DNA from: Thermoanaerobaculia bacterium
Lineage (GTDB): Bacteria > Acidobacteriota > Thermoanaerobaculia > UBA5066 > DATFVB01
Assembly: GCA_050747885.1 (NCBI GenBank)
Contig: JBOGJO010000034.1
Span: forward strand, 69-64,068
DNA length: 64,000 bases
Direction: 5' to 3'
Shown: positions 1,189 through 57,054 of the stretch, piece by piece
Layout: every line of letters begins with the position of its first letter
Position numbering within the stretch: position 1 is the first letter of the stretch
Position numbers and translations under genes: made by a program
The notes under the pieces: generated by a model
What the model was told of the DNA's origin: nothing
The model's database searches: none
What the model saw: only the letters and a program-made list of their open reading frames with translations

Positions 1189-3222
1189 TCAAGGCAGGGG
1201 CGTCACGCCGACGGAGCGGTCGAGCTCGGCCGGATCGAATCGCACGCCGTTCTTGACGACCATCATGACCCGCCGGATGTCTCCGATATGCGAGGTCGGA
1301 TCGCCGTCAACAAGGATGAAATCGGCGAGCTTCCCGGCGTGCACCCAACCCAGCTCTCCATTCCTTCCCATCACCGTGGCGGCTCCGAGGGTCGCGAGCT
1401 GGAGGACCTTCGGGGCGGGAATTCCCGCTTCGACGTAGAGCTCCAGTTCGCGGTCGAGAGTAAAGCCCGGCATGCCGTCCGTGCCGGCCACAACTGTGAC
1501 TCCGGCGCGGTAAAGTTCGCCGACCATGCGGAGGAGCGCTCGGAACGAGTCGGCGTACAGCTTCTCTTTCCCCGCCGCCATCGGGAGACCGCTGTTGAGC
1601 AGAGACCTTCGAACCTGCGCGGGCAGCCGGGCGGCGACCGGCTCCAGGCTCGCCGCGACCGACGTGGGGCGTCCCAGGAACATGTCTTCGAAGACGGCGA
1701 CCGTCGGGTCGCAGACGATGTCGTGCGTTTTGAGCAATGAGAGGAAAGACCGGAATTTCTCGGACGAGAAATCAAAACTCGCGGCGTGTTCGGCGACTTC
1801 CGTGAACCGCGCGGGCGTGCGCGTGTCCTTCACTGTGTCGAAGAGAAAATTCAGAAACAGAAAATTCACGTGCTGGATCTCGTCGGCGCCATCCCGGACG
1901 AATTGTTCGGCCGTCATGAACGCCGGCACGTGTCCACTGACACGCAGACCCTTCGCGTGGGCCATCCGGGCGATTGCGGGAACCAGCTCCGGTTTGACCG
2001 AACTGTAGATCTTGATCTGCACGTAGCCGAGCTTCGCGTAGTTGTCGATGGCTTTGCGGGCTTCCTCTTCCGAGTCGGCGAAGACTTTCGTCGGGCCGGT
2101 GTACGGGCCGCGGCCGTCGAGGAGGCCCGCCATCAGAATTCGGGGGCCGACGGATTCCCCGGTATCGAACTTGCGCCGCAGCGCGAGGAGACGGTCCGAA
2201 TCGTTGGCGAGGTCGCGCACGGAGGTCACGCCGGAGGCCAAGTGGAGCACGCCGTCGGCGTCCCCGCCGAGGTGCACGTGCATGTCCCAGAGACCCGGGA
2301 GAAGAGTCTTTCCGCGGGCATCGACGACCTCGGCGCCCGGCGGCACCGGGACGTCGTTGGACGGGCCTGCCGCCTGGATGTGCTCTCCCGCGACGAGAAC
2401 CGTCCAATCATGCCGGACAAGGGCCGTTTCGGAGTCGAAGAGCTCGGCGTGCGTCACGGCGAGGATTCCGGCCGGCCTGTGGGCGAGCGTCTTTTCCCGC
2501 GCCGCCGTTTCGGCCGCAGCGTCGGCGTCCTGCGCCTTCAACAGGTCGGGAACGGCCTTCTCCCAGCCTTTCTGGATCACCGTCATCCATCCGCTCGCCA
2601 GCGCGAAGAACTCCCGGTCCCCGTCGAGCCAGACGGGAGTCGGAGTGAAATCGAGGCCGGAGATGAAATATTCCACGACGGTTCGCTTCCGGCCGCCCGC
2701 CTCGACGGCGAGCTCTCGGCCTTTTCGGATGGAGGCTTCGCCGTCCGGGAGAAGCGCGAGCTTTTCGCCGCGCGCCCGGAGCAGCGCGCGCGCGAGGAAC
2801 CCGATCTCCTGTGGCGCGCCGTTCAAGCTCAGGTAGAACGCCTTGGGATCGGCGGGCTTCTCTCCGCTCTCGGACGCGCTTTTCCAGCGGGCCCTGCCGG
2901 CGGAAATGCCGAATTTTTCGTCCACGGGAACCTTCAGATAATTGACTCCCGAGATCCCGACTCCGGTCGGGATGCCGGACTCGTCGAGACGGAGACGGGA
3001 CGTCAGCTTCGGGCCGCGGCCCCGATCGTTGAATTCGAATTCGATCGTCCACTGGCCGCCAGGCAACGAGGTTGCGGTCTCGGTTCCGGCCGGCTGTTCC
3101 ATCATCAGAACGGAGTACTCGGTCTTGCGGGAAGCCGCCTGGACCGGGGAAACCAAGGCCGAGAGGACGACAACCGCGAAAATGGCGGCCGCCACGGAAA
3201 TTCTTGCCGGCAGGGTTTTCAT
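1189..3222 (-). CDS. Secreted amidohydrolase-family metal-dependent hydrolase (N-terminal uncharacterised domain plus amidohydrolase domain)
   Basis: 677 aa. N-terminal signal peptide MKTLPARISVAAAIFAVVVLSALVSPVQA. Amidohydrolase motifs (…LLPGLWDMHVHLGG…, …GTDG…). Confidence 0.85.
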   Translation of the reverse strand: MKTLPARISVAAAIFAVVVLSALVSPVQAASRKTEYSVLMMEQPAGTETATSLPGGQWTIEFEFNDRGRGPKLTSRLRLDESGIPTGVGISGVNYLKVPVDEKFGISAGRARWKSASESGEKPADPKAFYLSLNGAPQEIGFLARALLRARGEKLALLPDGEASIRKGRELAVEAGGRKRTVVEYFISGLDFTPTPVWLDGDREFFALASGWMTVIQKGWEKAVPDLLKAQDADAAAETAAREKTLAHRPAGILAVTHAELFDSETALVRHDWTVLVAGEHIQAAGPSNDVPVPPGAEVVDARGKTLLPGLWDMHVHLGGDADGVLHLASGVTSVRDLANDSDRLLALRRKFDTGESVGPRILMAGLLDGRGPYTGPTKVFADSEEEARKAIDNYAKLGYVQIKIYSSVKPELVPAIARMAHAKGLRVSGHVPAFMTAEQFVRDGADEIQHVNFLFLNFLFDTVKDTRTPARFTEVAEHAASFDFSSEKFRSFLSLLKTHDIVCDPTVAVFEDMFLGRPTSVAASLEPVAARLPAQVRRSLLNSGLPMAAGKEKLYADSFRALLRMVGELYRAGVTVVAGTDGMPGFTLDRELELYVEAGIPAPKVLQLATLGAATVMGRNGELGWVHAGKLADFILVDGDPTSHIGDIRRVMMVVKNGVRFDPAELDRSVGVTPLP

Positions 3223-3318
3223 GAAATCACCTCGCTTTGATTGACGGCGAAGAATACACCGAGCGGGCCGCGATTCGGAACGCCCGGCGATCGCTCCGCC
3301 GAGCTCGTCGCCCGAAAG

Positions 3319-5609
3319 TCATCGCTGAAAAGCATACGAGAGCTTCAGAAAAATCGATCGTGAGCTGGGTCGGAGTCTTCCGAACGCGTCCCCTTCGCGC
3401 TCGTCGCCGTAGCCCAGGAACGCCACGGTCTGCCAGTTCCAGCGATACGCGAGGAGCGCCGAACCGCTGAAGCTCGATTGCTCCGGCGCCACGGCCGGGA
3501 TGTAGAGAGCGGGGTCCCGCCGGGCCGAGAAATACTGCCCGATCGCCCGCGCAAAGCATTTCGAGGAGAAGTTGTACGTCGCCTTGAGCCGGGCGATCTC
3601 GGCGGTGAAAAGACGGCGGCGGGCGCCGCCGGAATCGACGTCGAGCCACTGTCGGTCGCCGTTGAAATCGAGCTGCAGGCGCGCCGTCGGCTTGACGGTT
3701 GCGGTAAGGCTCAACTCTCCGCCGCGTCCGGGCCGCGCGTTGACGGAGTCGGGACTGTCACCCAGGAAGCCGGACAGAGAGATCCGGGAAAAAACGCGGC
3801 CAGGATCGATGGACAGGCCGTACACGGTGAGCTGCAAATTGGAATCGACGACGGTTTCCCGGATCCGATCTTTCTCCCGGACCGTCAGATCGATCTCGCC
3901 GCCGAGATTTCGGATCCCGCTCGGGGCGGCGTAGAAGCCGCATTGCCTCTGAACCAGGGCTCCGCCGGGTCGAGAGAAGTAGTCGCAATAGATTCCGCCC
4001 TGAAGCTGGGAGAGGGCCCCCAGGTCGTAAACGTTGCGCGCCGCGACGACCTTCTCATGGCGGATCCCCACCTGAGGGATGAAGCCGTCGTCGGCGCGAA
4101 AACCGTCGCCGAGATCCTCGTGAAGCACCTGAAAGTGCCATTGAGGGTCATTGTGGGACCACCGCAGCGAGAGCGCCCGGGAGAAGAATTGCCGACCGAC
4201 CCAACCGGAGAAGAGGTCGGGTCGGTCGGGGGTTCGGGTGTCGCTCACGAGGAACTGACCCGTGAGCGTGTCATGCGCGCCGCCGCGCCACTGAGAGTCG
4301 GCGCCAAAGACGCGGTTGTGCCCGCCGCCCGCGGCCGGGGAGTTTTCCCGATCCGTGAAGAGCAGGCCCGCGAACGACGTTCCGAGGTCTTTCCTGAGCC
4401 TTCCGACGGCCGCGATCGAAGAGCCGTCCTGCGGCGCAGAGGCCGATTCGGTGGGACCCGGAATGACGACGGTTCCGCCGCCCCTGTCCTGGGCCACGAG
4501 CAGGGTGTACGACGAATCGTCCCATCGCCCCGTCGCGCGGGCCCCCCACCGCGGCGACGTGATCGTGCGAGTGGAAATCGCCGAGAACGGTGTTTGAAGG
4601 AGATCGACGCCCTCCAGAAAGAAAGGGCGCTTTTCCGGAAAGGTCAGCGCGAACCGGTTGTTGACCGAGATCTGGCCGACGTCGGATTCGACCTGGGAGA
4701 AATCCGGGTTGATCGTGGCGTCGAGGGCCGTGGCTGCCGACGGCGTCCATTTGAGGTCGATTCCCCCGTTGCCTCGGATCGGGCGGTTGCGAAGAATCCC
4801 GCCCGCGGCGTTCGCGGGAAGGGAGTTTTCAGAAAGCGTCGCATAGGGCGCCGCCACGAAGTGGCCTCCCTTCGGAAGGTCGAGGAGACCCGTCAGCGAC
4901 GTCGAACGGCACACGAGGCAATTCGAGTTGCGAGGGATCGCGGCACTGGAGAATGTGTGGCGAAAATTTCTCGGATAGTTTCTTTGAATCAAGACACCCC
5001 AATCCTTTGCGGAGTCGCCGGAGTACCGCAGTGAGGAAAAAGGGATTCGGACCTCCGCCTGCCAGCCCGTGGAGCTGATGCGGGCGTCGGAATCGAAGAA
5101 GAAATCCGGCGTGAGGTCCTCGCTCAAACTGGCGTCGGCGAACACGCCGTCGGTCTGCTGCCCCCGGGGGTTGACGCGGAATTCCATGGCGGATCGCCGT
5201 CCTCCCCGAGTGTCGAGGAATACCGTCACGCTGTCGTCGCTCGTCGAGATGTTGTCCCGATCGACACGTGGAGCGCGAATCCTCCACGGCTCCGGGTCCG
5301 AGCAGAGGAAGCCGAGATAGAGGTATTGCCGGTTGTAGGCGAGGATGACGACGGTCGAGACAGTCGGAGGATGTTGTCGCCGGGAGAGGTCTCGGCGAAC
5401 GCTTCGATTCGGGCAGCTCCGTTCCAACCGGGGTCCGAGAGGTCGCCGTCGATCCGGATCGGTCCGGCAGCGCGGTGGATTTCGACCGCCGGGCCGCCGG
5501 GCAGCGGGGCGCCCGACAGCAACGCTGTCAGCAGCCAGAGAAATCCGGCGAGCAGGGCCTTCAGGGGAGCGCCTCTGCCGCGAGACTCCCCGAGGCCCCC
5601 CCTTCCCAC
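3319..5609 (-). CDS. CBM9/DOMON-like plus DUF5916-type secreted protein, with an apparent frameshift near 5350-5376 (possible pseudogene or assembly indel)
   Basis: The N-terminal part (frame of ORF 5226..5609) has a signal peptide and the IDGDLSDPGWNGAARIEAF motif. The rest (ORF 3319..5427, other frame) continues with …ILAYNRQYLYLGFLCSDPEPWRIRAPRVDRDNISTSDDSVTVFLD…, characteristic of this family. The two frames overlap between 5226 and 5427. Confidence 0.55.
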
Positions 5610-16047: not shown

Positions 16048-16743
16048 ATGGCCAGACACATCGGCATCGTGGCTTGCAGCGCGGAAGGAGCGGCGCTCTG
16101 CTATCGGACAATCGCGCTCGAGGCTCAGTCCCGGATGGGCGAGCACAACCACCCGAAAATGACCATGAATTCGATTCCGATGGCCGAGCACCTGTTCTTC
16201 ATCGGGGGAAATGACTGGGCCGGCGTCTCCGACCTGCTCCTCGATTCGGCCCGTCGCGTCAAGGCGGCCGGGGCCGATTTCGCGATCTGCCCGGACAACA
16301 CCTGCCACCAGGCTTTTCCGTTTCTCCTGCCCCGCTCGCCCCTTCCGTGGCTCAGCATCGCGGAGGTCGTTGCTGCCCGGGCGGAGAAATCCCGGCTCCG
16401 GAGGCTCGCGATCCTCGGCACCCGCTCCCTCATGGAATCCAACGTCTATCCGGGGGCGCTGGCGGCTCGGGGGATCGGATTCGAGATCCCCGAGGCCACC
16501 GATCGGGCCAAGATCGACAGGATCATCTTCCAGGAGCTCGTCAACGCGATCTTCGCCGAACCCTCGCGGCTCTATTTCAACGAAGTGATGGACGAGCTGA
16601 AGGCGAAGGGCTGCGACGGCGCCGTTCTCGGGTGCACCGAGATTCCGCTCATCGTCCGCCCGGGAGACGCTCCGCTTCCGACTCTCGACTCGACGAGGCT
16701 GCTGGCCCGCGCGGCGATCGCACACGCTCTTTCCGAAAACTGA
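16048..16743 (+). CDS. Aspartate/glutamate racemase-family protein (YgeA-like amino-acid racemase)
   Basis: MARHIGIVACSAEGAALCYRTI…, with the second catalytic region …VLGCTEIPLI…. Collinear with E. coli YgeA. Confidence 0.85.
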   Translation: MARHIGIVACSAEGAALCYRTIALEAQSRMGEHNHPKMTMNSIPMAEHLFFIGGNDWAGVSDLLLDSARRVKAAGADFAICPDNTCHQAFPFLLPRSPLPWLSIAEVVAARAEKSRLRRLAILGTRSLMESNVYPGALAARGIGFEIPEATDRAKIDRIIFQELVNAIFAEPSRLYFNEVMDELKAKGCDGAVLGCTEIPLIVRPGDAPLPTLDSTRLLARAAIAHALSEN

Positions 16744-17085: not shown

Positions 17086-18162
17086 GGCGCAATCAACCTG
17101 GCCCAGGGCTTTCCCGACTTCGACGGGCCGGAGTTCGCGAAAGAGGCGGCGATCTCAGCGATTCGCGCGGGGCACGGTCAGTACGCGCGGGTTTCGGGAC
17201 TGCCGGAGCTGCACCGGGCGCTCTCGGAGAAATACCGGAGGGACTACGGCCTCGAATACGCCCCCGACACGGAGATCACCGTGACCTCGGGCGCGACTGA
17301 GGCGATCTTCGCGGCGATTCAGGGAATCTGCGATCCCGGTGACGAGGTCGTTCTGTTCGAGCCGTTCTATGACTCGTATCGGGCGAGCGTCGTGATGGCG
17401 GGCGCGGTCCCGAGAGTCGTGACGCTCCACGTGCCGGGATGGCAATTCGATCCCGCGGATCTCGAGAGAGCCTTCACGTCGAAAACTCGGGCGGTTCTCG
17501 TGAACACCCCTCACAATCCGACGGGCAAGGTGTTTTCGCGGGAGGAGCTCGAGTCGATCGCTCGCCTGTGCCGGGAGCGGGACGTTCTCTGCGTCACCGA
17601 CGAGGTGTACGAGCACCTCGTGTACGAGGGGACTCACGTTCCGATGGCGACGCTTCCGGGCATGAGGGAGAGGACGATCACGATCTCGAGCTTCGGGAAG
17701 ACGTATTCGCTGACGGGGTGGAAGATCGGCTGGGCCGCCGCGCCGCCCGAGCTCTGCGGCGCGGTTCGTGCCGCGCACCAGTTCATCACGTTCGCCACGG
17801 CGACCCCGCTGCAGCATGCCGCCGCGGCCTCGCTTGCCGACCGGCCGGAATACTTTCGGGACTTTCTGGCCTCCTATCTGAGAAAGCGCGATTTTCTCTG
17901 CGGGGTTCTCTCGGACGCGGGGTTCGAGGTCTATCGCCCCGCCGGGACGTATTTCGTCTGCGCCGGTTTCGAGAAGCTCGGATTCGACGACGACGTCGCG
18001 ATCTGCCGGAGCCTGACGGAAAAGACCGGTGTGGCGGCTCTCCCGCCGAGCTCGTTCTACCAGGAGTCCGTCGAAGGGAAAACTTACGTGCGCTGGGCTT
18101 TCTGCAAGCGGGACGAAACGCTGCAAGTGGCGGCGGAAAGGCTGCGAAAGCTTTGCGCGTAG
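17005..18162 (+). CDS. Class I PLP-dependent aminotransferase (methionine or glutamine transaminase, YbdL/KAT-like)
   Basis: …GTTIFAEMTRLANEHGAINLAQGFPDFDGP… and the PLP-lysine region …SFGKTYSLTGWKIGW…. N-terminus positioned by alignment to YbdL. Confidence 0.85.
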   Translation: MRPALCSRLAPFGTTIFAEMTRLANEHGAINLAQGFPDFDGPEFAKEAAISAIRAGHGQYARVSGLPELHRALSEKYRRDYGLEYAPDTEITVTSGATEAIFAAIQGICDPGDEVVLFEPFYDSYRASVVMAGAVPRVVTLHVPGWQFDPADLERAFTSKTRAVLVNTPHNPTGKVFSREELESIARLCRERDVLCVTDEVYEHLVYEGTHVPMATLPGMRERTITISSFGKTYSLTGWKIGWAAAPPELCGAVRAAHQFITFATATPLQHAAAASLADRPEYFRDFLASYLRKRDFLCGVLSDAGFEVYRPAGTYFVCAGFEKLGFDDDVAICRSLTEKTGVAALPPSSFYQESVEGKTYVRWAFCKRDETLQVAAERLRKLCA

Positions 18163-18935
18163 CGCTCGTCCAGTTCGACATTGCGTGGGAGAGCGTGGAG
18201 GAAAACCATCGCCGGGTTTCGGCGAGGCTCGAGGAGGCCGCTGCGGGCGGAGCCCGGCTGGCAATCCTTCCGGAAATGTTCTGCACCGGCTTCTCGATGG
18301 ACGCCGCGCGGATCGCGCAACCGCCGCACGGTCCGACGGAGTCGTTCCTGAAAGGGAGGGCCCGCGACCTCGGCCTCTGGATCATCGGCTCGATTCCCGA
18401 GGCGGCCGAGCCGGCGCCGCGCAACACCGCCCTCCTCGTTTCGCCGGACGGCGACGTCGAACGGTATTCGAAAATCCATCCGTTCTCGTATGCCGGCGAG
18501 CACCGCCACTATGCCCCGGGGGACCGGATCGTCACGGTCGAGATCGGCGGCGTGCGCGTGACTCCGTTCATTTGCTATGACCTCCGCTTTCCGGAGCCGT
18601 TCCGGTTCGCCGCGGCCGACACCGATCTCTTCGTCGTCGTCGCGAACTGGCCCGAATCGCGCGGCTCGCACTGGAGGGTGCTGCTCCGCGCGCGCGCGAT
18701 CGAAAACCTCGCGTACGTCGCGGGCGTCAACCGCGTCGGCGACGGGGGCAAGCTTCACTACGCGGGAGACTCGGCTCTGATCGACCCGCTGGGCCAAACG
18801 GTCGTCGAGGCGGGGGACACGGAGGCCGTGCTCATCGGGGACGTGGAGACCGCGCGCGTGCGCGAAGGGCGCGAGCGTTTTCCGGTCCTCGCCGACGTCC
18901 GGCCGGCGGCCTACCGCCGGTCGAGCGGGCCCTAA
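18153..18935 (+). CDS. Carbon-nitrogen hydrolase (nitrilase superfamily; omega-amidase YafV-like)
   Basis: E-K-C triad context: …LAILPEMFCTGF…, …VTPFICYDLRFPE…. Probable TTG start at 18153 overlapping the aminotransferase stop. A transaminase-amidase pairing is typical. Confidence 0.8.
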   Translation: MRVALVQFDIAWESVEENHRRVSARLEEAAAGGARLAILPEMFCTGFSMDAARIAQPPHGPTESFLKGRARDLGLWIIGSIPEAAEPAPRNTALLVSPDGDVERYSKIHPFSYAGEHRHYAPGDRIVTVEIGGVRVTPFICYDLRFPEPFRFAAADTDLFVVVANWPESRGSHWRVLLRARAIENLAYVAGVNRVGDGGKLHYAGDSALIDPLGQTVVEAGDTEAVLIGDVETARVREGRERFPVLADVRPAAYRRSSGP

Positions 18936-20803
18936 CCTCGGCCGACGACTTCCCTCCGGTCCCCCACCCTTCGCGTCACTTTCTTCTCGTCCAGGTGCTC
19001 GAGAAGCGGGATCGCGATCCGGCGCGTCAGGCCGAACATTTCCTTGAATTCCGGGACGGAGAATGACTTCCGTCCCGAGGCCCGAAGGCGCGCGACGGCA
19101 TTGTCGACAGCCTTCTGAGAAATGTAAAAGCCCCCGGGGAGCTTTGCGAGCCGCCTCTCCCTCGCGAGAAAAGCGATGAGACCCTCCACGATCTTCTGTT
19201 TCGCCCCGAGCGCCTGCACGAGATCGCCCGGAGAAGGCGGCTCCAGCTCCGCCTCGTCGAATCGCAAGGCGATCTTCTCTGCAAGCTTCTGGTCGCCGGC
19301 CGCGAGCGACCCTCCGCCCGGCAGGCGGATTTCCTCTCCGCTCACGACGATCGTCCCCCGGGCCGCGAGCCGTGCGAGCGCCTCTTCCGCGAGTCTCGGA
19401 TCGAAACGGGAGAAGAGCCGCTCGAACACGACGGCGCGGGAAGCGCCCGTCGACCCGGGCCGCGTGCGAAGCTCTTTCTCGACGAGCGCTCGGACCTGGG
19501 CCCCGAGCTCGGCCAGCCGGGTCGCGGGAAGGTAGAAATGGCCGCCGGAGAGCTCGACGAGATCCGGGGACCCGGGGCCCAGACGCTTTCGAACCTCTTC
19601 GGGCCGGGTCCACTCCTGGCGCGAAAGCTCGTCGAGAGAGATCCCTTCGGCGCTGCGATGAATGCGGCGCATCAGCCGTTCTCGCGGTCCTCCCGATTGG
19701 AACACCTCGAGGTCATCCGCCTCGAGTTTGCGGGGCGGATCGGCGTCGAGGATCTCTCCGCCCCCGATGGTCGCCGGGGGGGAAGGGCGCCGGAGCACGA
19801 ATCGATCTCCCACGGCCGCGGCGGCCGGGTGCGCGAGCGTGATGAGGGCCGGGGCGGTTTCCCCCGGCTCGAGAACCTCTCGGTCCCGCAGGCGCACGCG
19901 CGCGCTCATCTCCGATGCGAAATGGTGGAACGTCACGGTTGCGCCGTTCTTCAACCTCGAAGCGTCGGCCAGGAGCTCCAGCCGGACGAGAAGGCGCCGC
20001 GAAGGCCGCAGCGCTCCCGGGCTCGCCACCGTTTGTCCGCGGCGCAGGAGCGTGAGGTCGATTCCGGCGAGGTTGACGCTCGTTCGCTCGCCCGCCTGAG
20101 CGCGCGCAACCTCTCTTCCGTGGACCTCCACCCGACGCACGCGGGCCTCCGTGCCTTCCGGGAGGATCTCGACGCGCTGCTCCGCCGCGACGGTCCCGCT
20201 CACGAGGCTTCCCGTCACCACGGAGCCGAAGCCGGCGATCGAGAACGCCCGGTCGATCGGAAGGCGCAGAGGCTTTTCTTCGCGCTCCTTCTGGCTCGCG
20301 ACCGCGAGATCGAGCACCGCCCTCCGGAGCGCGTCGAGGCCCTCGCCCGAGCGGGCCGAAACGGGAAAAATCGGCGCGGCTTCGAGGAACGAGCCGCCGA
20401 GAAATTCCCGCACCTCGAGACGCACGACCTCGAGCAGCTCGGGCGCCACGCGGTCGGTCTTTGTCAGGGCCACGAGACCGCGGGAAAGACCGAGCAGTCG
20501 CGCAATCGCAAAGTGCTAGCGCGTTTGCGGCTTGATTCCTTCGTCGGCCGCGACGACGAGAAGAAGGGCGTCGAGACCGCCGGCGCCCGCGAGCATGTTC
20601 CGGACGAATCTCTCGTGACCCGGCGCGTCGACGAAGCCGACCCGCGCGTCTCCTTCCTCGAGGTGCGCGAACCCGAGATCGATCGTGATGCCCCGCGCCT
20701 TCTCCTCGGGCAGGCGGTCCGCGTCGATGCCGGTCAGCGCCTCGACGAGAGCGGTCTTCCCGTGGTCGATGTGGCCGGCCGTTCCGATGATGTATCGGCG
20801 CAA
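18932..20803 (-). CDS. selB: Selenocysteine-specific elongation factor SelB, interrupted by one in-frame TAG at 20516-20518
   Basis: N-terminal GTPase [17 protein letters not shown]…DAPGHE…IKPQTR, then TAG, then [10 protein letters not shown]…ALTKTD… in the same frame. C-terminal winged-helix domains. TTG start with a GGAGGG Shine-Dalgarno sequence. Confidence 0.8.
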
Positions 20804-20895
20804 GCGCCCTCCGGGTGCATTTATCTCACGTCCGCCGATCCGTTCGATGAAGGCGGCTTGTGAGGGTCCCTTCGGTGAGATAGCCTTCGAAGGCG

Positions 20896-39633: not shown

Positions 39634-39823
39634 CGGTCAATCGCCGTGTGAGTCGCTTCCCCCTCACTCTTCCCTCCCGCGCTAACCGGTCGTCATAAGG
39701 CTGCCCCCAAGGGGAGAGGGTTAAGCGGGTTCGCATTTCCGCCGCTCCCCCTGCGGGAGAGGCCGGCGCGTAGCGGCGGGTGAGGGGTGGTCGCCGGTTC
39801 CGTCATGTAAACTGCGCCACCGG

Positions 39824-39900
39824 GCGCCCGTAGCTCAACTGGATAGAGCATCAGACTTCGGATCTGAGGGTTGGGGGTTCGAATCCCTCCGGGCGCACCA
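39824..39900 (+). tRNA. tRNA-Arg (anticodon TCG)
   Basis: Manual fold: acceptor GCGCCCG/CGGGCGC, D-arm GCTC…GAGC, anticodon stem TCAGA/TCTGA with loop cTTCGga, T-arm GGGGG-TTCGAAT-CCCTC, 3' ACCA. Confidence 0.85.
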
Positions 39901-40155
39901 AATTTCGCTCCACTTCGTTCCGCTTAGGCTTCGCGCGTCCTTCGCTGCGCTCGGACAAATTTGGACGTCTGACCTGGGGGAAGCTTCCCCCATCTGAATC
40001 GAGTTGTCCTTCAGGTCGTCGAGGGAATCCGCGGGGGGCTGGAACGGATGCCGCTCGACTCTGAAGCCTGGCACGCTGCCGAGGGTCGGGCAGGCTTCCT
40101 TGTAAATCGGGTTCCGGTTTCCGCTGCCCGAGGAAGCGGCCGTCGGCGACGTGAC

Positions 40156-40243
40156 GACGATGAAAATTCCCGAGACCCTACGGGAGCAATATTACGGCGA
40201 TGGAAACTCGCTCTTCTTTCGCTGGATTGCGGCGAGGTGACTG
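40156..40243 (+). repeat. 88-bp direct repeat copy A (encodes a 26-aa peptide MKIPETLREQYYGDGNSLFFRWIAAR)
   Basis: 86/88 identical to 48439-48526. Both differences are synonymous third-position changes in the peptide frame. Confidence 0.8.
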
Positions 40244-40251
40244 GTGAGGAA

Positions 40252-40437
40252 CTAAACCCGCATGAGTTGCGGGGGGTTGTCGTAGTGGCGGTCGCGGTCA
40301 TGCAGCACAGAGTTGCTCTGGAGGACGAGCGCGGCGACCCACATGTCGTTGGTCGGAATTGGAGTTCCGGCGACGCGGAGCTGTCGGAAGAGCGACACGA
40401 GGCGTGCGGTTTTCTCTTCGCCGCGGCAGAGATCCAC
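40252..40437 (-). pseudogene. Truncated PIN-domain (VapC-like) toxin remnant
   Basis: Translation …GTPIPTNDMWVAALVLQSNSVLHDRDRHY… matches the VapC C-terminal ND.WIAA…L.T.D motif. Only about 60 aa are present. Confidence 0.4.
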
Positions 40438-40464
40438 GTGGCGGTTCGTGTCGAGTCCTGAGCA

Positions 40465-40935
40465 TCACTTTCGCCCCGTCGGCCTTGAGAGATGGGCGGC
40501 GCAATTGATGAACCCCGGCTCACGAATCGAGCCGCAAATCGGACACAGCCCGGCCTTTCGTCGTTTCGCCACCCGCTGTCTCGCGTAGGCGCGCTCTTGC
40601 TCGCGATGAAAACGGCAAAGCCGAGTTCCCGTCTTCACAGCTTTGCCGCACCTCTCGCAGCGCCCCGCCCTTGCGCGTTGGCGCTTCAGGGCACGGCTGA
40701 AGTCGCGCATTTCCTTGAGATGTCTCTTGCAGCAAACGTGAGGCTTAGAGGCTGGGCGGGCGCACTTGACGCACCGCCCGACTGCCTTCAGCTCTGATGT
40801 TCTGCGGCGCGAATGCTCGGCGCGCATTCTCCGGTGCTCGCCGCAGACCGACAGTCCGCGAAGACGCTTCTTCGTGCAGTGAGAGCACCGGTCAGAAAGC
40901 TTGCGTCGGTGGATCGCTTTGCGTCTGGAGGTCAT
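40465..40935 (-). CDS. Basic protein with four tandem C-x2-C-x9-11-C-x2-H zinc-finger-like repeats
   Basis: Repeats CSHC…CGEH, CVKC…CCKRH, CERCG…CRFH, CPICG…CAAH. Each is followed by an Arg/Lys-rich stretch. Codon usage is atypical for this genome. Confidence 0.6.
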   Translation of the reverse strand: MTSRRKAIHRRKLSDRCSHCTKKRLRGLSVCGEHRRMRAEHSRRRTSELKAVGRCVKCARPASKPHVCCKRHLKEMRDFSRALKRQRARAGRCERCGKAVKTGTRLCRFHREQERAYARQRVAKRRKAGLCPICGSIREPGFINCAAHLSRPTGRK

Positions 40936-40953
40936 GGCCTCTCGCACTCGCCG

Positions 40954-42063
40954 TCATCGCCTCTCTTCTATCGGGGGCGGCGCCAAGGGCTGAACCGGGC
41001 CGGAGATCGATGGTTCCACGTTCTGAGGAGGCGCGATCTCACTTGATCGTTCTGCTTCGGGGCGCAGCTTGCCGAGAAGAGAGGAGAAAGACTTCGCCGT
41101 GTCGTCGGAGCCAGCCGGAAACCTTCCGAGAAAGAACTGGATCTGGCTCTTTGAGGCCGTGGCCGGAATGACCACCACCCGGGCGGTGGCGAAGACTTTC
41201 GATAGACTCGCTCGATAGAGCCTCGCGCGGCCTGCCGCCGGGGAGCGAGCCACCTGGTCCGCAATCGCCAGAAAAGTCTGCCGTTCAGCCCGCGCCGCCT
41301 CGGTGATCTCCTTGTTCCGGCTTTCTGCCTGTCGGACGTCGGTCTCGGCCTGCGCGCGGGCAAGTGAAAGTGCTTGCGACGCTTTTCCCTGAGCCTCGCT
41401 CACCCGCCTTTCTCTCCAGGCGGCCGCGTCGGATACTGCGTTGAAGGCGCCCGCCGCCTCCGCGGGTGGGCTGACCGCCGCGAGGGAGACCTGAAGCAGA
41501 ACGATTCCCGTGCGTGTTTGCTCGGCTGCGGCCTGAGCGGCGCTTCGGACAGCTTCCTGCAGAGCGCTCTTTCCCGTGGTCAGCACTTCGTCGACCGGCA
41601 AAATGCTGATCTCGCGGGCCAGCGCGGCAATTGCGGAATCGAGCAGCACGCCGTTGGGGTCGTATTGCGCAGTACGAAACAGGCCGGCATCCTCGATCCG
41701 GTACTGCAACTGTCCGCTGATCTCGACGAGATTTTCGTCGCCGGTAATGAACTCCAGCGTTTCTGTCTCTCTTCTGTTTAAAGGAAGCGATCGCACCGCC
41801 CCGACCGCTACGACCTCGAATTCCTCCATCAGGGGAATAGCAAAGGTCGCCCCCGGCGACACTCGGCCGTCCACGAGCTTCCCGAGCCTTCGCCGGAGAC
41901 CCCGCTCGTCATTGCGGACCACCCGGATTCCCGAAGCCATGAGAACGAGAAGGGCGAGAAGAAGACTCGCGAGCGCGCCTATGCGTCGGCGCCGATACAG
42001 GGCGGCTGCGGCCGCCCGAATCCTGACGACGTGACGGGGCTGGGTCAATTCGGGTTCGTTCAT
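40954..42063 (-). CDS. SPFH/Band-7 family protein (HflK/HflC-like)
   Basis: N-terminal TM. SPFH core …LEFITGDENLVEISGQLQYRIEDAGLF…. Coiled-coil Ala/Glu-rich C-terminus. Start overlaps the upstream stop (ATGA). Confidence 0.8.
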   Translation of the reverse strand: MNEPELTQPRHVVRIRAAAAALYRRRRIGALASLLLALLVLMASGIRVVRNDERGLRRRLGKLVDGRVSPGATFAIPLMEEFEVVAVGAVRSLPLNRRETETLEFITGDENLVEISGQLQYRIEDAGLFRTAQYDPNGVLLDSAIAALAREISILPVDEVLTTGKSALQEAVRSAAQAAAEQTRTGIVLLQVSLAAVSPPAEAAGAFNAVSDAAAWRERRVSEAQGKASQALSLARAQAETDVRQAESRNKEITEAARAERQTFLAIADQVARSPAAGRARLYRASLSKVFATARVVVIPATASKSQIQFFLGRFPAGSDDTAKSFSSLLGKLRPEAERSSEIAPPQNVEPSISGPVQPLAPPPIEERR

Positions 42064-42956
42064 GGGTGATGGGCGCCCGTTCCCGGCCCCTCATTGAGCA
42101 CCTTCAGCATCGGACTCTTCGAGTCGAGAAAGATTGTGGTCTCGGCTCCGATCGACTTTTCGTACCCGTGCAGGGCTCGAAGAAACTCGTAGAGCCGCGG
42201 GTCGCGCCGATACGCCTCCCCGACGAGGCGCGTGGCTTCGGCCTCGCCCTGCCCCCGAAGAATCTCGGCGTCTCGCGCCGCTTCGGCCAGGAGTGTGCGT
42301 CGCCTCTCGTCGGCCTCGGCTTCGATCTTCTGACCCGCCTCTTCCCCTTCGGAGCGAAGGCGCAAGGCGATCCGGGCTCGCTCAGCGCGCATTCTCGCGA
42401 CGATCGCTTCCCGGTTCTGGCCCGGAAAATGGACCTGTGAAAGCCACGCCGCGTCTGCCTCAACGCCGAGACTCGCCCTCGCGAACGCGTCCACCCTCTG
42501 CCGGACTCGTTCGGTGAGCTCCGCCGTCCGAACGGTGCCCGGCTGGGTGGAGAAGAAAGCCTCCGATGGCATGCGCCCGGCGGCTGATCCGAGGGAGGAG
42601 ATCGCGAGATCGATCAACCGGGCTTCGGCACCGTCGACGTCCCGGACTCGTTGGAGGAAGAGAGCCGGGTCGGAGATTCGCCAGAGCAACGAAAGCTCCA
42701 GCACGAGGTTTTTCTTGTCGGATGTCAGGAACTCCGTCGGCGGAATCCGAAACAGTATCCGGCGGCGATCCAGCCGGAACACCGACCCGATCGGCCTCGG
42801 GAGAATCAGGTGCGGCCCCGGCGCGAGAGGGCCGGAGACGAGGCGCCCGAACCTCGTTGCGAGGGCGACCTCGGTTTCGTCGACAATGACCAGGGAGTCG
42901 AGCGCCAGTGCGACGATCGCCCCGACGAGCAGGAACGCGAGTGTCGTCTTTTTCAT
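42060..42956 (-). CDS. SPFH/Band-7 family protein (HflC-like)
   Basis: MKKTTLAFLLVGAIVALAL… (signal anchor). …FLTSDKKNLVLELSLLWRISDP…. ATGA overlaps at both ends. Confidence 0.8.
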   Translation of the reverse strand: MKKTTLAFLLVGAIVALALDSLVIVDETEVALATRFGRLVSGPLAPGPHLILPRPIGSVFRLDRRRILFRIPPTEFLTSDKKNLVLELSLLWRISDPALFLQRVRDVDGAEARLIDLAISSLGSAAGRMPSEAFFSTQPGTVRTAELTERVRQRVDAFARASLGVEADAAWLSQVHFPGQNREAIVARMRAERARIALRLRSEGEEAGQKIEAEADERRRTLLAEAARDAEILRGQGEAEATRLVGEAYRRDPRLYEFLRALHGYEKSIGAETTIFLDSKSPMLKVLNEGPGTGAHHP

Positions 42957-45247
42957 GGAGGTGCGGGTCCTTTCATGTCGGTCTTGGGGGCAGCCGGCGT
43001 GCCCCAGTCGAAGATTCTCGGCTCGACATTGGCGGGGAGGATGACCTTCGGCCGTCCGTGCAGCGCACGCTCGATCGTGTTCCACCAGAGACGGAGCCGT
43101 GAGGCTGCGAGCCGGCCTGCAGCGGCCGCCGCCTGGAGCTGGAAGGAATGCCCTTCTCCTTCGGCCCGCAGGATCGTCTCCGTGCGATCCGACCGGGCGG
43201 CGGCCAGCTCCGTGGACGCCTGAGCGCGAGCGAGAGGAAGCGCGGAGTCGAGCTTTCCGCGGGCCTCGAAGATCCTGCGTTCTTTCTCCTCTGCGGCGCT
43301 GCCGACATCCCGAAACGCTGCGACCGTCTCTTGCGGTGGATGGAAGTCCAGTATGTTGACCGCGCCAACCGAGAGCGGAATGCCACTGCGGTCAAGCTCT
43401 TCCTGAAGTCGAGCACGCGCGGTTTCTTCGAGCTCTCCCCGCTGCTCTGTCAAGGACGTGTCGATCCCGCGTGTCGCGAGAAGGCTCTTGACGACGCTCA
43501 AGAACGGCGGGCGGACCGCGTCGATACCGTCGCGGGTTCGAAATGCCAGCTGGTACGGGTCCCGTACCCTCAGGTGGAGCGCGGCTTTGATCTCGACCAG
43601 ATTCTGATCGCCTGCCACGAACGATGCTTCTCCGGGCATGTCGTCCGAGCTCGTGTAGATCGAGTGCCAGTATTCAGAAAAGGGATCCCAACGGATTCCC
43701 TGATAATCGGCGACCGGCTTCCCACGGAACCCCACATCGACCTTGAGAAGTTGCTCCGCCGGAACGACCCTGAAGGCGCCCAGCGGCGGCGGCAGCGCCC
43801 AGTGCCATCCCGCGGGGAGCGCGAATGGATTCGCACGGCCGAGAGTCTCTCGAATGGCGACCGAGCCCGGCGGGACACTGACGAATCCTCGCGCCATCCA
43901 TAGCAAGACCGCGACAGCGCCGCCGGCGCCGATCAGACGAACCTTGTTCGCGGTCTCGGCTCTGTGGAGGCCCGACTGAAGACCTCGCCGAGCGGTCTCG
44001 GGAACGAGACCTTGCACGGCTTCACGGATCTCCCGGCGTCCTTGCTGCCATCCCACACGAAGCAGTGACACGAAAAAGACAATTCCAAAAAGGACGCCGA
44101 AGAGAATCTCCCAGCCCGAAACGTTCTCCGTCAACAGCGGCTGGCCGGTATATCCGGGCCCGGTCAATGAGCGGCGCAGCCCATGAAGAATCAGCCCGAA
44201 TGCCAGCGAAATCGAAAAGCACGAAATCAGGAGGGCCCGAATATATTTTCGGCCGAAATGCCGACGCAGGACGAGAAGGCTTGCTGGATTCGTGATGGGC
44301 CCGGTCAGGAAAATCACGAGCGCCGCGGCGGGGAAGAGGCCTTTGGCGACAAGGACGGCCGCCAGCGGGATCGTCCCGGAGGCACACACGTTCAGGGGGA
44401 TGGCGATGAGCGCCGCGAAGACGAACTGGCCGAACAGTCCCCCGGGAATTCGGGACGCAAAATCCTGCGGCAGAAGCGAGGCGAGAAAACCGGATAGCAG
44501 AAACCCGAAGAGGAGCGGCCAGGCTATCGCGTCGAGGAGCTCTCCGAAGCCATAGAGTGAGACTTCTCGAAGGGCTCGGGCCGCCTTCACAAGGAGCGGG
44601 CTCGCGGTCGCCGGCCTCTTATTGGCGCCCGGCGCTTCGCGCTCCACCGCAACGTCCGAAATAGCGACCGGCTGCGGTCGCGCCCGGAAGGCTACCCATT
44701 TGCGGCGAATGAGGTGTAGCCAAAGATTCATGCGCCGCCATCCGCGCGGCAACTTCCGCCGGGAGTCGAGACCCGGCGTCATTGCATCCGCCGTCGCGCT
44801 CGGCGCATCAGGAGGTCCCCAGGCTGCCGAGGCGATAACAAGAACCGCGCCGAGAATCGCCGCGCACAACCCGGCAACGACCCTGGCGATGGCGAAGCCC
44901 CAACCAAAGAGACCCGCTGTGAGAAAGACCGCATCCGGGCTGTCTTCCGGCGTCGAGACCAGGAACGCAGCCACACTCTCGGGCGTGGCGCCCTGCTTTC
45001 TGAGCTCGAGCGCGACCGGGAGAGTGCCGCAGGAGCAGATGGGAAGCGCTACCCCCGTCATGAGCCCGGCTCGAACGGATCGCAAACCTGGCGAGGATAA
45101 GCTTCGCCGAATTCGTCTCCTTCCGCTGACGAACCGGTGGAAGAAACCTGCGACGATGAGGCCGGCAAGCAGGTAGCCGCTGCTTCTCGCGAAAAGTTGA
45201 AGCGAGAGCGAAAGCGTCTGCTCGACGAGGCCCAGAAAGCCGCTCAC
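42953..45247 (-). CDS. Fusion protein: COG0701/DUF318-type permease (ArsP/SO_0444-like, CSCG motif) plus a C-terminal SPFH (HflK-like) domain
   Basis: N-terminal about 330 aa polytopic region with the GVALPICSCGTLPVALEL motif. C-terminal …FVAGDQNLVEIKAALHLRVRDPYQLAF… SPFH domain and coiled coil. Confidence 0.7.
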   Translation of the reverse strand: MSGFLGLVEQTLSLSLQLFARSSGYLLAGLIVAGFFHRFVSGRRRIRRSLSSPGLRSVRAGLMTGVALPICSCGTLPVALELRKQGATPESVAAFLVSTPEDSPDAVFLTAGLFGWGFAIARVVAGLCAAILGAVLVIASAAWGPPDAPSATADAMTPGLDSRRKLPRGWRRMNLWLHLIRRKWVAFRARPQPVAISDVAVEREAPGANKRPATASPLLVKAARALREVSLYGFGELLDAIAWPLLFGFLLSGFLASLLPQDFASRIPGGLFGQFVFAALIAIPLNVCASGTIPLAAVLVAKGLFPAAALVIFLTGPITNPASLLVLRRHFGRKYIRALLISCFSISLAFGLILHGLRRSLTGPGYTGQPLLTENVSGWEILFGVLFGIVFFVSLLRVGWQQGRREIREAVQGLVPETARRGLQSGLHRAETANKVRLIGAGGAVAVLLWMARGFVSVPPGSVAIRETLGRANPFALPAGWHWALPPPLGAFRVVPAEQLLKVDVGFRGKPVADYQGIRWDPFSEYWHSIYTSSDDMPGEASFVAGDQNLVEIKAALHLRVRDPYQLAFRTRDGIDAVRPPFLSVVKSLLATRGIDTSLTEQRGELEETARARLQEELDRSGIPLSVGAVNILDFHPPQETVAAFRDVGSAAEEKERRIFEARGKLDSALPLARAQASTELAAARSDRTETILRAEGEGHSFQLQAAAAAGRLAASRLRLWWNTIERALHGRPKVILPANVEPRIFDWGTPAAPKTDMKGPAPP

Positions 45248-45283: not shown

Positions 45284-47716
45284 TCAGAACGTGTACTTCA
45301 CTCTCGCCGCCAGCGTCCTCGGCGGAATCACGTGCGTTCCGCCGAAGGTCGAGAGCACGTTGTAGACACCTTTCTTATCGAAGGCGTTGAGTAAGTCGAC
45401 CTGCAACGAGACGGGAACTCCGTAGCGCGTTAGATCGGCCCCGGCAGAGAAATTCCAGATCGTGCGGGGCTTGATCCGGTTTGGATCGAGGTTCGTGTTC
45501 GACGTGAAGTTGATGTATGGGTACGCGAAGGCGTTGTCCGGGTCCTGCAGGATCGTTTGGTCCGCCCCGGTGACGAGCCCGGAATCGTAACGGGCCATCG
45601 CCGCCGCCCAGAACCCGGACGATCCAAAGGCATAGTTCAACCCGCCCTGAATTTGGAGTTTCTCGTCGTGGTCGATGACGAAGGGCCCCCCGTTGACGGC
45701 GTCGAGCGCGCCCGAGTCCAGGAAGAGGCCGCCAGCCAGCGGCGGCACGTAGATGGCGCGCGTGTGGCCGACCGAAAGGTACCCTCGAAAGCCATCGATG
45801 GGAGCCGAGTCCAGGCGCACGTTCCACCCGTGGAGTTTTCCTTGCGAAAACGCCAGCGGAAAGACGATCCCCGTGTTCTGGAACTGGTCCTGGTCACCCG
45901 CAAATTTCGAGTCGCGCCGCCAAAAATCGACATCCAGGCGGACATAGGGGCCGACTTGCTGCTGGAGTCCCAGGTCATACGCGTCCTGCCGCTCCGACGG
46001 GACGAAGAGGAGACCGTCGCCGAGCGCTCTCGACTGCTGCACGTCCGGCGGGGCCAGCGCCGCGGCCTCTTCCGAGGAGGAGAAGAGGATGTTCTCGTAC
46101 TCCGGTGTCTCGAAGATCCGGTTGTACGAGGCTCGAAAGACGGACTTCGTTTGGGAAATGAAGTAGCTCACACCGACTCTCGGCTCGAGCTGGGATTCTT
46201 TCAGTGGAAAGCTATTATGGTCATAGCGCAGTCCGATCTGTGCCGTGAGATTTCCGAGCCGGATCGTGTCCTCCGCGAATCCGGCCAGGTAAGTGACCGT
46301 CTTGGATTGTTCGAACCGGAAGACTGCGCCCCCTCGCGTGAGGTCATAAGGCGCGAGATTGGGATTGTAATCGGGCGACGAGGGATCGTTGAGGTTCGGG
46401 TCGGTGATCCCAAAGGAGAACCGCTCTTGAATGGGATAGCTCTTCAAGATGGCTCCGAACTTGAGCTCGTTCGCGTTGCCCACCTGAATCGAGAGTGTCG
46501 GCTGGACGCCGTAGTTATCGAGCGACCGCTTGGAGCTCGTGATGACCGACGGGTCGTTGGGCGAACCGCGGTACGTGAACCGGTTGTTCCGGGCGAAAAG
46601 CGTCGTGTCGAGCACGGTCGTCGAGCCGAAGACGTGTTGCCATCCGAGGTTCGCGTTCCAGTCGGTCGTCTCGACGGTGTTGTCCGTATCCGCGGCCTGC
46701 TGTGTGAGCGTGTTCGTCACATCCCGATTGGTCCTCCCGATGAGTCCCGAAAGTCGGAAGCTGTCGCCGCCGCCTGGCGTCGTTCTGTCGAGGCGTAGGA
46801 AGGCCCGTTCGGTGTCGCCGTGGTTGTGAAAATTGTCAAAGTTGACGGGATCGAGGAACCGATCGGATTTCGAGCCGTCCACGGACCCGAAGTACCCGAG
46901 GGTATCGGAGCCCCCTCCCACCGAGGCCCCGGCGTCGTAGGTGCCAAACTTCGCGCCGCCCGCGTGGACGTCCCCGTGCGGGCCGCCGGTTCCGAGGCCC
47001 GATTTCGTCGTCAGATTGATGACCGCTGCAATCTTCTCGCCGTATTCGGCCGGCACGTTCCCGTAGATGACCTCCGCGGACTGAAGAATGCCGGGGTCGA
47101 TCGAGTTCGAAAACGTCGTGCCGATCTGGTCCGTGATCGGCTGGCCGTCGACGACGTAGCTCTGCTGGCTGTGCGCGCCCTGAAAGTGGTAGCGCCCGTT
47201 CTCGTCGGCGGAGAAACCGGGCGCCTGGATGACAAGCGCTTCCATGCCGCGCGACGGAGTCGCCGCAGGTGCGTGCTCGATGAACGACTTGTCTATGTCG
47301 ACGTGCGATTGCGACGAATCGGTCTCAAGGACCGCCGCCGGCTTCTCCGCCTCCACCTTCACCGTTGCTGTCACCGATTCGAGAGCGAGGGTCACGGGCT
47401 GATCGATCGGCGCGGTGCTCCGCACGTCGATTGCGAGGTGTTGCGTCGCGAAGCCCTGCACCTCGACGTGGAGTTCGTAGGGGTTGAACGGAACGTTGAA
47501 GAATGAGTATTTCCCGTCCGCTTCCGTTACGGCCTGCGCCTTGAACCCGGTGATGTCGTTGCGAAGGACGAGCGGAACGCCCCCCATCGGTTTCCCGTCG
47601 GGTCCGGTTACCGTCCCGCGAATCGAACCGGCGGCAAGCGCCGCGAGACAGTTGTTCCTACCCAGGACAAGCGAGACGGACAAAGTCAAAATCGATATCA
47701 GGATGCGATTTCTCAC
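45284..47716 (-). CDS. TonB-dependent outer-membrane receptor with N-terminal CarboxypepD_reg-like domain
   Basis: GTG start after GGGAGGAAA. Signal peptide. …GTVTGPDGKPMGGVPLVL…TEADGKYSF… is a CarbopepD_reg fold. Plug and 22-strand-barrel length (810 aa). C-terminal …KYTF. Confidence 0.85.
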   Translation of the reverse strand: MRNRILISILTLSVSLVLGRNNCLAALAAGSIRGTVTGPDGKPMGGVPLVLRNDITGFKAQAVTEADGKYSFFNVPFNPYELHVEVQGFATQHLAIDVRSTAPIDQPVTLALESVTATVKVEAEKPAAVLETDSSQSHVDIDKSFIEHAPAATPSRGMEALVIQAPGFSADENGRYHFQGAHSQQSYVVDGQPITDQIGTTFSNSIDPGILQSAEVIYGNVPAEYGEKIAAVINLTTKSGLGTGGPHGDVHAGGAKFGTYDAGASVGGGSDTLGYFGSVDGSKSDRFLDPVNFDNFHNHGDTERAFLRLDRTTPGGGDSFRLSGLIGRTNRDVTNTLTQQAADTDNTVETTDWNANLGWQHVFGSTTVLDTTLFARNNRFTYRGSPNDPSVITSSKRSLDNYGVQPTLSIQVGNANELKFGAILKSYPIQERFSFGITDPNLNDPSSPDYNPNLAPYDLTRGGAVFRFEQSKTVTYLAGFAEDTIRLGNLTAQIGLRYDHNSFPLKESQLEPRVGVSYFISQTKSVFRASYNRIFETPEYENILFSSSEEAAALAPPDVQQSRALGDGLLFVPSERQDAYDLGLQQQVGPYVRLDVDFWRRDSKFAGDQDQFQNTGIVFPLAFSQGKLHGWNVRLDSAPIDGFRGYLSVGHTRAIYVPPLAGGLFLDSGALDAVNGGPFVIDHDEKLQIQGGLNYAFGSSGFWAAAMARYDSGLVTGADQTILQDPDNAFAYPYINFTSNTNLDPNRIKPRTIWNFSAGADLTRYGVPVSLQVDLLNAFDKKGVYNVLSTFGGTHVIPPRTLAARVKYTF

Positions 47717-47798
47717 GGGTTTCCTCCCTCAAATGTGAACCCCTGCGCGCGCGGCGCAAGCCGCGAGCGATACCGTTGTCTATTCGTTCGACGGGGGA

Positions 47799-48209
47799 TC
47801 AGATGAGGGAGGGAGGACCGCGGGCAAGAGATTCGGAACGGAATCCAGAGAGTTGAGGACGATCCTGGGCGGCGCGAACAGCTTCAACTGTTGCGAGAAA
47901 GATCCGCGCGGGGGGTTGAACTTGAATGCCGGTGAGGTGCTGACGCAGACAGGCGAGGCAGGGTTCGACTTCGACGATCAGGTCCGGGTGCCAGTGGGAA
48001 GCCGTCGGGTTGGCGCAGGAGATCTCGTGAACCTCGCGGACCGTGTTCGAGTCGTCAAAAAGCCATTCCGCCGTCAGCGAGCTTGAGTGATGATGGGTCG
48101 CCGTTGCGACGACCACCTGGGAGAGCAAGACAAGAAGCGTGATCCCAAACCGGAGAGAGGTTCGCGTATTTCGGCAGGCTTCACGCCGGCTCACACGGTT
48201 GGTGGTCAT
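47799..48209 (-). CDS. Small secreted His/Cys-rich protein (possible periplasmic metal-binding protein, DUF2946-like)
   Basis: Start MTTNRVS…. TM/signal segment LRFGITLLVLLSQVVVATA followed by THHHSS and CLACL. Lies directly upstream of the TonB-dependent receptor. Confidence 0.4.
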   Translation of the reverse strand: MTTNRVSRREACRNTRTSLRFGITLLVLLSQVVVATATHHHSSSLTAEWLFDDSNTVREVHEISCANPTASHWHPDLIVEVEPCLACLRQHLTGIQVQPPARIFLATVEAVRAAQDRPQLSGFRSESLARGPPSLI

Positions 48210-48438
48210 TCCACCGGAGGATACCACTCCCGGGACGGCGATTCTCTGTGTCCACATGCGTTTTTGCGTCGTCGCTCTCGATCCGATCAGACCGAGGACC
48301 CAGAATAGGCCTACGACGGCCCGGTCGTGACTTACGGCACGATGATGATGCCGGGGCCCTTGACCACCGAGCAGTTGCTTCCGCCGTTGTCGCAGAGGGA
48401 AGCCGTGTCGTCGTACGGCTTGCCGCTACTCGCGTCCT

Positions 48439-48526
48439 GACGATGAAAATTCCCGAGACCCTGCGGGAGCAATATTACGGCGACGGAAACTCGCTCTTCT
48501 TTCGCTGGATTGCGGCGAGGTGACTG
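48439..48526 (+). repeat. 88-bp direct repeat copy B (same 26-aa peptide ORF)
   Basis: See copy A. Followed 8 nt later by the tRNA 3'-half repeat. Confidence 0.8.
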
Positions 48527-48533
48527 AAAGACG

Positions 48534-48578
48534 TCAGACTTCGGATTTGAGGGTTGGGGGCTCGAATCCCTCCGGGCG
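48534..48578 (+). repeat. Direct repeat of the tRNA-Arg 3' half (att-like remnant)
   Basis: cagacttcggatTtgagggttgggggCtcgaatccctccgggcg matches the tRNA sequence at 43 of 45 positions. Confidence 0.75.
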
Positions 48579-48587
48579 GTTCGCGCC

Positions 48588-56898: not shown

Positions 56899-57054
56899 CT
56901 AGGGTCGCCAGAATCGAATCAGGTAGTAGACCATCCAGAACCCCAGGGCCGTGAACACGGCGATCAACCATCCCGGGATGATGCCGTGGCGCTCTTCGAT
57001 CCCCGTGAATTCGTAACGGTTGATTTCGTCGGGGCCGTGCTTTTCGGTGTCCAT
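56899..57054 (-). CDS. Small single-TM protein (CcoQ/FixQ-like cbb3 subunit)
   Basis: Manually translated 51 aa: MDTEKHGPDEINRYEFTGIEERHGIIPGWLIAVFTALGFWMVYYLIRFWRP. Lies immediately upstream of ccoN. Confidence 0.5.
   Translation of the reverse strand: MDTEKHGPDEINRYEFTGIEERHGIIPGWLIAVFTALGFWMVYYLIRFWRP

Follow-up and report, generated by a model that had tools for sequence, protein, structure and literature searches.

A selB gene interrupted by a single in-frame amber codon in a Thermoanaerobaculia contig

The gene for the selenocysteine-specific elongation factor, selB, is interrupted by one in-frame TAG codon in a 64,611 bp contig of a Thermoanaerobaculia metagenome-assembled genome (MAG), from an uncultured acidobacterium of soil type. 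In the 64,000 nt stretch of this contig that we analysed (termed the window), selB occupies positions 18932 to 20803 of the minus strand as a conceptual frame of approximately 622-623 codons with a single interruption. By descent the gene is selB; as written, its product is truncated, and the frame is not open for a single polypeptide. We consider it fairly probable that the TAG is a genuine, very recent null allele of selB in the organism. The case is either an ordinary knockout of very recent origin or a sequencing error, and it offers no new reading of the genetic code.

Structure of the interrupted gene

An earlier note on this DNA, made from the sequence alone, had recognised the interrupted gene as selB, and profile searches agree. 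The joined translation, with X at the stop, scores 339.8 bits (E 3e-101) against the NCBIfam model TIGR00475 (selB), whose curated equivalog cut-off is 242.25 bits, and the match runs from end to end (residues 5-617 on model positions 2-577 of 581). On the same translation, EF-Tu models stay far under their own cut-offs. Furthermore, the Pfam domains follow one another across the stop in the canonical order: GTP_EFTU (PF00009, residues 4-166), GTP_EFTU_D2 (PF03144, 193-259), Beta-barrel_SelB (PF25461, 278-358), wing 2 (PF09106, 448-494, slightly under its own cut-off) and SelB-wing_3 (PF09107, 579-617). In its full-length collinear match, its domain order, its G1-G5 motifs and its C-terminal winged-helix SECIS-binding domain, the conceptual translation resembles known bacterial SelB (TIGR00475; 5lzb, 4zu9). 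It is unlike these proteins in that a TAG takes the place of the invariant Glu of QTREH and closes the frame.

Two intact orthologues of 622 amino acids are 83% (P0001) and 81% (P0003) identical to the joined SelB, the next two intact proteins are 75% and 72% identical, and all four have QTREH at the site. Gene order is kept with the intact Thermoanaerobaculia orthologues, with yqeY and CYTH genes upstream of selB and CN-hydrolase and aminotransferase genes downstream, and one locus (termed L002) is fully syntenic with the window.

The stop lies at positions 20516 to 20518 (CTA on the plus strand) and is codon 96 of the gene. Direct reading of the minus strand gives CCG CAA ACG CGC TAG CAC TTT GCG ATT (P Q T R stop H F A I), which bears out the single in-frame amber codon that the note had placed here. 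In alignments with solved structures, the stop stands opposite a Glu: that of QTREH in E. coli SelB (5lzb; ...DDGVMAQTREHLAIL...), about Glu94 in the chain numbering of that entry by a count made from the alignment, and that of PQTIEH in Aquifex SelB (4zu9). The note had drawn the same correspondence with the E. coli protein, and this part stands, but the letters that it quoted (IKPQTREHLAIL) were slightly misremembered.

The amber codon divides the gene into open reading frames (ORFs) of 95 and 513 amino acids, the sizes given previously, and the starts that define them (TTG at 20803 and GTG at 20473) are seen in the sequence. The N-terminal ORF (20516 to 20803, minus strand) begins with TTG and, as read from its translation, carries motifs G1 (GHIDHGKT), G2 (RGITID) and G3 (DAPGH) only. 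Beyond the stop the frame stays open for the remaining 527 codons until a terminal TAG at 18932-18934 (18932 to 20515, minus strand). This portion carries G4 (TKTD), G5 (SAR), domains II and III and the winged-helix SECIS-binding domains, and all of the tRNA-binding domains of SelB lie 3′ of the stop. The 513 amino acid ORF (18932 to 20473, minus strand) appears both in a mechanical ORF list and in the NCBI deposit, and starts at an internal GTG that corresponds to Val110 of SelB. The sequence holds no GGAGG-like site 5′ of this GTG, and the ORF is probably an annotation by-product that yields no real product. In the NCBI deposit the two pieces are adjacent, separate proteins, MGH9440990.1 ('GTP-binding protein', the 95 amino acid piece) and MGH9440989.1 ('SelB C-terminal domain-containing protein', the 513 amino acid piece), with no pseudogene entry.

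Translation of the gene would begin at a GGAGG (20812-20808) followed by a 4 nt spacer and TTG (20803-20801), a start region (20801 to 20812, minus strand) assigned from the sequence and from comparison with relatives. The GGAGG sits inside an insertion of approximately 30 nt (window 20801-20840, minus strand) that is absent from L002 and from a second close relative (termed L001). Both of these loci have ATG, not TTG, at the aligned start codon, and neither has an obvious Shine-Dalgarno sequence. From its sequence, the start region of the window's selB looks functional.

To survey continuity across stop codons, every stop of the window was extended in frame and the extensions were scored for coding potential. 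There are 11 same-frame neighbour pairs with coding potential on either side of the stop, and selB alone among them is a collinear pair from one family; the remaining 10 are neighbouring genes from different families or involve a separate small ORF. The continuation of one family across the selB stop is not due to chance. The same scan of the window yielded no hidden selenoprotein gene and no further read-through candidate.

The site in related genomes and selection on selB

The sample of relatives comprises 82 selB loci, 80 of them from Genome Taxonomy Database (GTDB) species genomes among the SelB-alignment matches listed; these 80 are at most 54% identical, and the source MAG and its genus are not among them. 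Among the matches listed, all 82 related loci have Glu at position 96 (tblastn with P0001 as query, window added), and none has an internal stop in selB, compared with one stop in the window. This comparison with the selB of relatives, which the earlier note had suggested, leaves the TAG unique to the window sequence and supports the note's description of a conserved Glu changed from GAG to TAG. The codon at the site is GAG in L001 and GAA in L002, and among 68 loci matched by a motif scan (matches listed) there are 55 GAG and 13 GAA. Since L001 has GAG and GAG is the commonest codon at the site, a single G-to-T change is the most parsimonious origin of the TAG. Glu is also found in all 11 of the closest database proteins, and the proteins that cluster with the N-terminal fragment at 90% identity have QTREH there. 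Relative to its intact orthologues, therefore, the window's selB bears a disabling lesion of the kind that marks a pseudogene.

The TAG at codon 96 is known from one metagenome-assembled contig. A degenerate pattern, DEG..PQTR-[TAA/TAG/TGA/TGG]-HF, gave no match in 241 million metagenome records; as controls, the stop pattern recovers the window and its Glu version recovers 6 fetched loci, so that the pattern samples part of the family. An exact 27-mer search that left the variable base as N had no match in metagenome_contigs, and look-ups of two exact proteins, the 513 amino acid ORF and the YqeY next to it, led to no recorded contig. The cluster of the 513 amino acid ORF has a single member, and the closest intact protein reaches no more than 83% identity. 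No second, independent sequence of the source population was found in any collection searched, and the TAG is thus unreplicated.

Apart from this codon, selB shows the signature of a gene under constraint. Nei-Gojobori dN/dS values are 0.121 for the window versus L001 and 0.145 for the window versus L002, compared with 0.135 between L001 and L002, both of which are intact. Lineage-specific changes are likewise distributed in similar proportions, with 50 amino-acid and 96 synonymous changes in the window, 30 and 79 in L001, and 39 and 73 in L002. At the 98 columns with a conservation of 95% or more in the 82 SelB sequences (matches listed), the window deviates by the stop and by a V-to-A change (DAPGH for DVPGH) that is common to the whole clade. 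Relaxed selection and secondary lesions, a second mark of pseudogenes, are accordingly not observed in the window's selB. Judged from these comparisons, the lesion is too young for its age to be measured, and selB, if it is a pseudogene, would be a brand new one.

A different break was seen in a syntenic relative (termed L083; positions 2933-4755 of ENA ERZ28533575 NODE_34054), whose SelB is 75% identical to that of the window. A 52 nt frame-shifting deletion in the G domain removes approximately residues 41-57. The contig has a k-mer coverage of 0.76, and its ABATE/zf-CGNR gene is also internally deleted. The break is probably an artefact of poor assembly, and a decaying genome could be the alternative. 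Recurrent loss of selB in the clade was considered and set aside; L083 was not counted because its contig is of very low coverage and carries this second internally deleted gene.

Origin of the amber codon

On our preferred reading, that of a recent null allele, a single G-to-T transversion on the coding strand of selB (GAG to TAG) would have given rise to a premature amber codon, at residue 96 in a protein of approximately 622. The change would have been instantaneous on an evolutionary scale, with the rest of the gene unaltered since. Translation would then end after G1-G3 and release a 95 amino acid fragment that lacks guanine-binding motifs G4 and G5, the domains that bind tRNA and the winged helices that bind the SECIS element, and an allele with this truncation would therefore be null for SelB. 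In carrier cells the decoding of UGA as selenocysteine would fail: Sec-tRNA would no longer be delivered to UGA/SECIS sites, and formate dehydrogenase and other selenoproteins would be cut short. Loss of Sec decoding is a conditionally dispensable phenotype in E. coli. Such a fresh loss-of-function allele might have reached fixation in the population that was sampled, or only predominate there, and would represent the first step of the sporadic loss of the Sec trait in bacteria, a well-documented process. On this reading we infer that the organism truly carries the base, as opposed to a consensus error, and that the product is non-functional.

The three options that had been put forward earlier were recent pseudogenisation, an artefact of assembly or polymorphism, and a suppressed or read-through stop; the first, as a very recent null allele, and the second are kept here, whereas the third proves unlikely. 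An artefact would mean that the true gene has GAG and is intact, and that the TAG arose by a sequencing, polishing or consensus error, or was a minority allele of a mixed population picked by the assembler. We hold this to be possible but doubtful. Except for one base, selB is indistinguishable from a functional gene (ω 0.12-0.145, no extra damage at conserved columns, an intact start), and an otherwise healthy gene with a good Shine-Dalgarno sequence and ω of approximately 0.13 is also what an artefact is expected to look like. The lack of a second sequence with the TAG in the collections searched points the same way, as does the nature of the change, since G-to-T is a known class of oxidative-damage artefact. 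Against an error stands the quality of the surrounding sequence. Besides selB, the block in common with L002 (approximately 14.0-27.8 kb) has 15 genes, all of which align from end to end with no stop; Pfam domains in the rest of the window have their full length; and selB is the only visibly broken gene among approximately 59, so that no other error-like lesion is seen in 64 kb. For a free-living bacterium, one pseudogene in about 59 genes is an ordinary proportion, and on rough priors a consensus substitution that makes a stop would be rarer in 64 kb than a genuine pseudogene among this number of genes.

A decoded amber codon would give the gene another history, in which some or all ribosomes make full-length SelB by near-cognate read-through of UAG-C, by a suppressor tRNA encoded elsewhere or by insertion of pyrrolysine, perhaps tuning the level of SelB. 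As in programmed recoding (UGA-Sec with SECIS, UAG-Pyl or read-through), an in-frame stop is found here in an otherwise intact, conserved gene. In addition, the 3′ neighbour of the TAG is C, which makes a comparatively weak termination context in E. coli; the gene is fully intact 3′ of the stop; and SelB is needed in small amounts only. Unlike programmed recoding sites, however, the stop is not a conserved feature of the family (none of the 82 relatives among the matches listed and no metagenome match has it), the residue that it replaces is an invariant Glu, and the window offers neither an outstanding downstream structure nor dedicated machinery. For the 100 nt that run from the TAG onwards, the folding energy is -40.0 kcal/mol versus a shuffle mean of -37.2 (z = -0.88), and the equivalent stretches of L001 (z = +0.20) and L002 (z = +0.41) also do no better than their shuffles. 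Rfam and RNA folding revealed no recoding element in the window. ARAGORN and Rfam together found a single RNA gene there, a tRNA-Arg(TCG), with no tRNA-Sec and no suppressor tRNA, and Pfam scans of the window found no pyl-type gene, SelA, SelD or formate dehydrogenase. Searches by tblastn with E. coli SelA and SelD (approximate query sequences) likewise had no match in the window but matched four loci that served as positive controls, L050, L062, L078 and L044. Because selB is not adjacent to tRNA-Sec in 21 Thermoanaerobaculia/Acidobacteriota relatives, the absence of Sec genes from the window is uninformative about the genome. About a quarter of the predicted genes of the window end in TAG, which runs contrary to an efficient suppressor. 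Given the absence of the stop from the 82 relatives, the lack of a stimulatory structure and this heavy use of TAG as terminator, a programmed or suppressed stop is unlikely, and we regard decoding in any of these forms as very improbable. Slighter still is the chance of a narrower version, in which the amber codon is real and partly decoded by a suppressing tRNA or through a leaky UAG-C, so that the factor for UGA recoding is itself throttled by UAG read-through. If true, partial decoding would turn down selenoprotein synthesis in this lineage without its loss.

Two more radical proposals are that TAG has been reassigned to sense, or that the two ORFs form a functional split SelB of two polypeptides. 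The presence of two separate proteins and no pseudogene in the NCBI deposit would fit a split, but the break separates G3 from G4 within the G domain; translation of the second piece would need the internal GTG that lacks a Shine-Dalgarno sequence; and no relative among the 82 matches listed is split at this site. Reassignment conflicts with the use of TAG as a normal stop in the window. The 59 genes of the codon-usage gene map end in TGA (33), TAG (16) and TAA (10), and about 15 predicted genes besides selB thus terminate with TAG. The NTP-transferase and UbiX genes end in TAG at the same points as their L002 orthologues, which also use TAG, and the aminotransferase gene, which the earlier note had cited as an example of a genuine TAG stop, ends with TAG at 18160-18162, four codons past the end of its alignment with the L002 orthologue. 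Moreover, nowhere else in the window does one family cross a TAG. Global reassignment, already judged improbable in that note, is rejected on stop-codon usage and orthologous gene ends, and the reassignment reading is effectively refuted; neither it nor a split protein retains more than a vanishing probability.

Disrupted selenocysteine genes and other features of the window

Disruption of Sec genes in single lineages has already been described, and the selB of the window is one more, very early instance. One Yersinia selB can be read only with a frameshift at poly(G)10 (PMC1780047). In the M. ulcerans clade, Mycobacterium liflandii and M. pseudoshottsii have selA and selB as pseudogenes (PMC13449736). 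As in these cases, a gene of the Sec pathway is disabled in one lineage and intact in close relatives. The present lesion differs in being a single nonsense substitution, with no frameshift or IS-linked decay, in a gene that shows no measurable relaxation of selection and that is represented by one metagenome-assembled contig only. Such cases fit the sporadic distribution of SelB among bacteria (PMC1780047). If the base is real, the MAG would capture the Sec trait at the moment of its loss, with one hit in selB and nothing else decayed, and would add a small data point to what is known of how bacteria sporadically gain and lose the use of Sec. The importance of the case extends little beyond annotation: MGH9440990.1 and MGH9440989.1 should be a single selB pseudogene, or a single intact gene if the base is an error, and selenoprotein predictions for the source genome call for caution until the reads are checked.

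Several other features of the window were recorded. An Asp/Glu/hydantoin racemase gene (16048-16743, plus strand) lies between the EamA and aminotransferase genes, which are directly adjacent in L002 and L083; either it was inserted in this lineage specifically or the relatives have lost it. An unpredicted 51 amino acid ORF (56899-57054, minus strand), which encodes one hydrophobic helix (MDTEKHGPDEINRYEFTGIEERHGIIPGWLIAVFTALGFWMVYYLIRFWRP), is flanked by a gene for a dihaem cytochrome c and by ccoN. This ORF is in frame with the TAG of the upstream gene, has its own ATG and, by its sequence, looks like a small accessory subunit of the cbb3 oxidase.

Beside the sole tRNA gene of the window (Arg-TCG, 39824-39900) there is approximately 1.1 kb of poorly coding DNA (39634-40953). 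It includes a Cys-rich ORF of 160 amino acids with no Pfam match (40465-40947, minus strand) and an ORF of 61 amino acids (40252-40437, minus strand) whose likeness to the C-terminal end of a PIN/VapC toxin was judged by eye only; the region may be the remnant of an integrated element. Three consecutive SPFH/Band_7 genes follow (40954-45061, minus strand). The first of these (42953-45061) is fused to an ArsP_1-type permease, and its Pfam match starts at profile position 58 at residue 2, so that either the start is miscalled or the 5′ end is truncated. Finally, a stretch of 904 nt without a convincing gene (47684-48587) separates a CarboxypepD_reg-domain protein of outer-membrane type from a 309 amino acid membrane ORF with no Pfam match, and contains a 152 amino acid ORF (47799-48257, minus strand) that also has no Pfam match.
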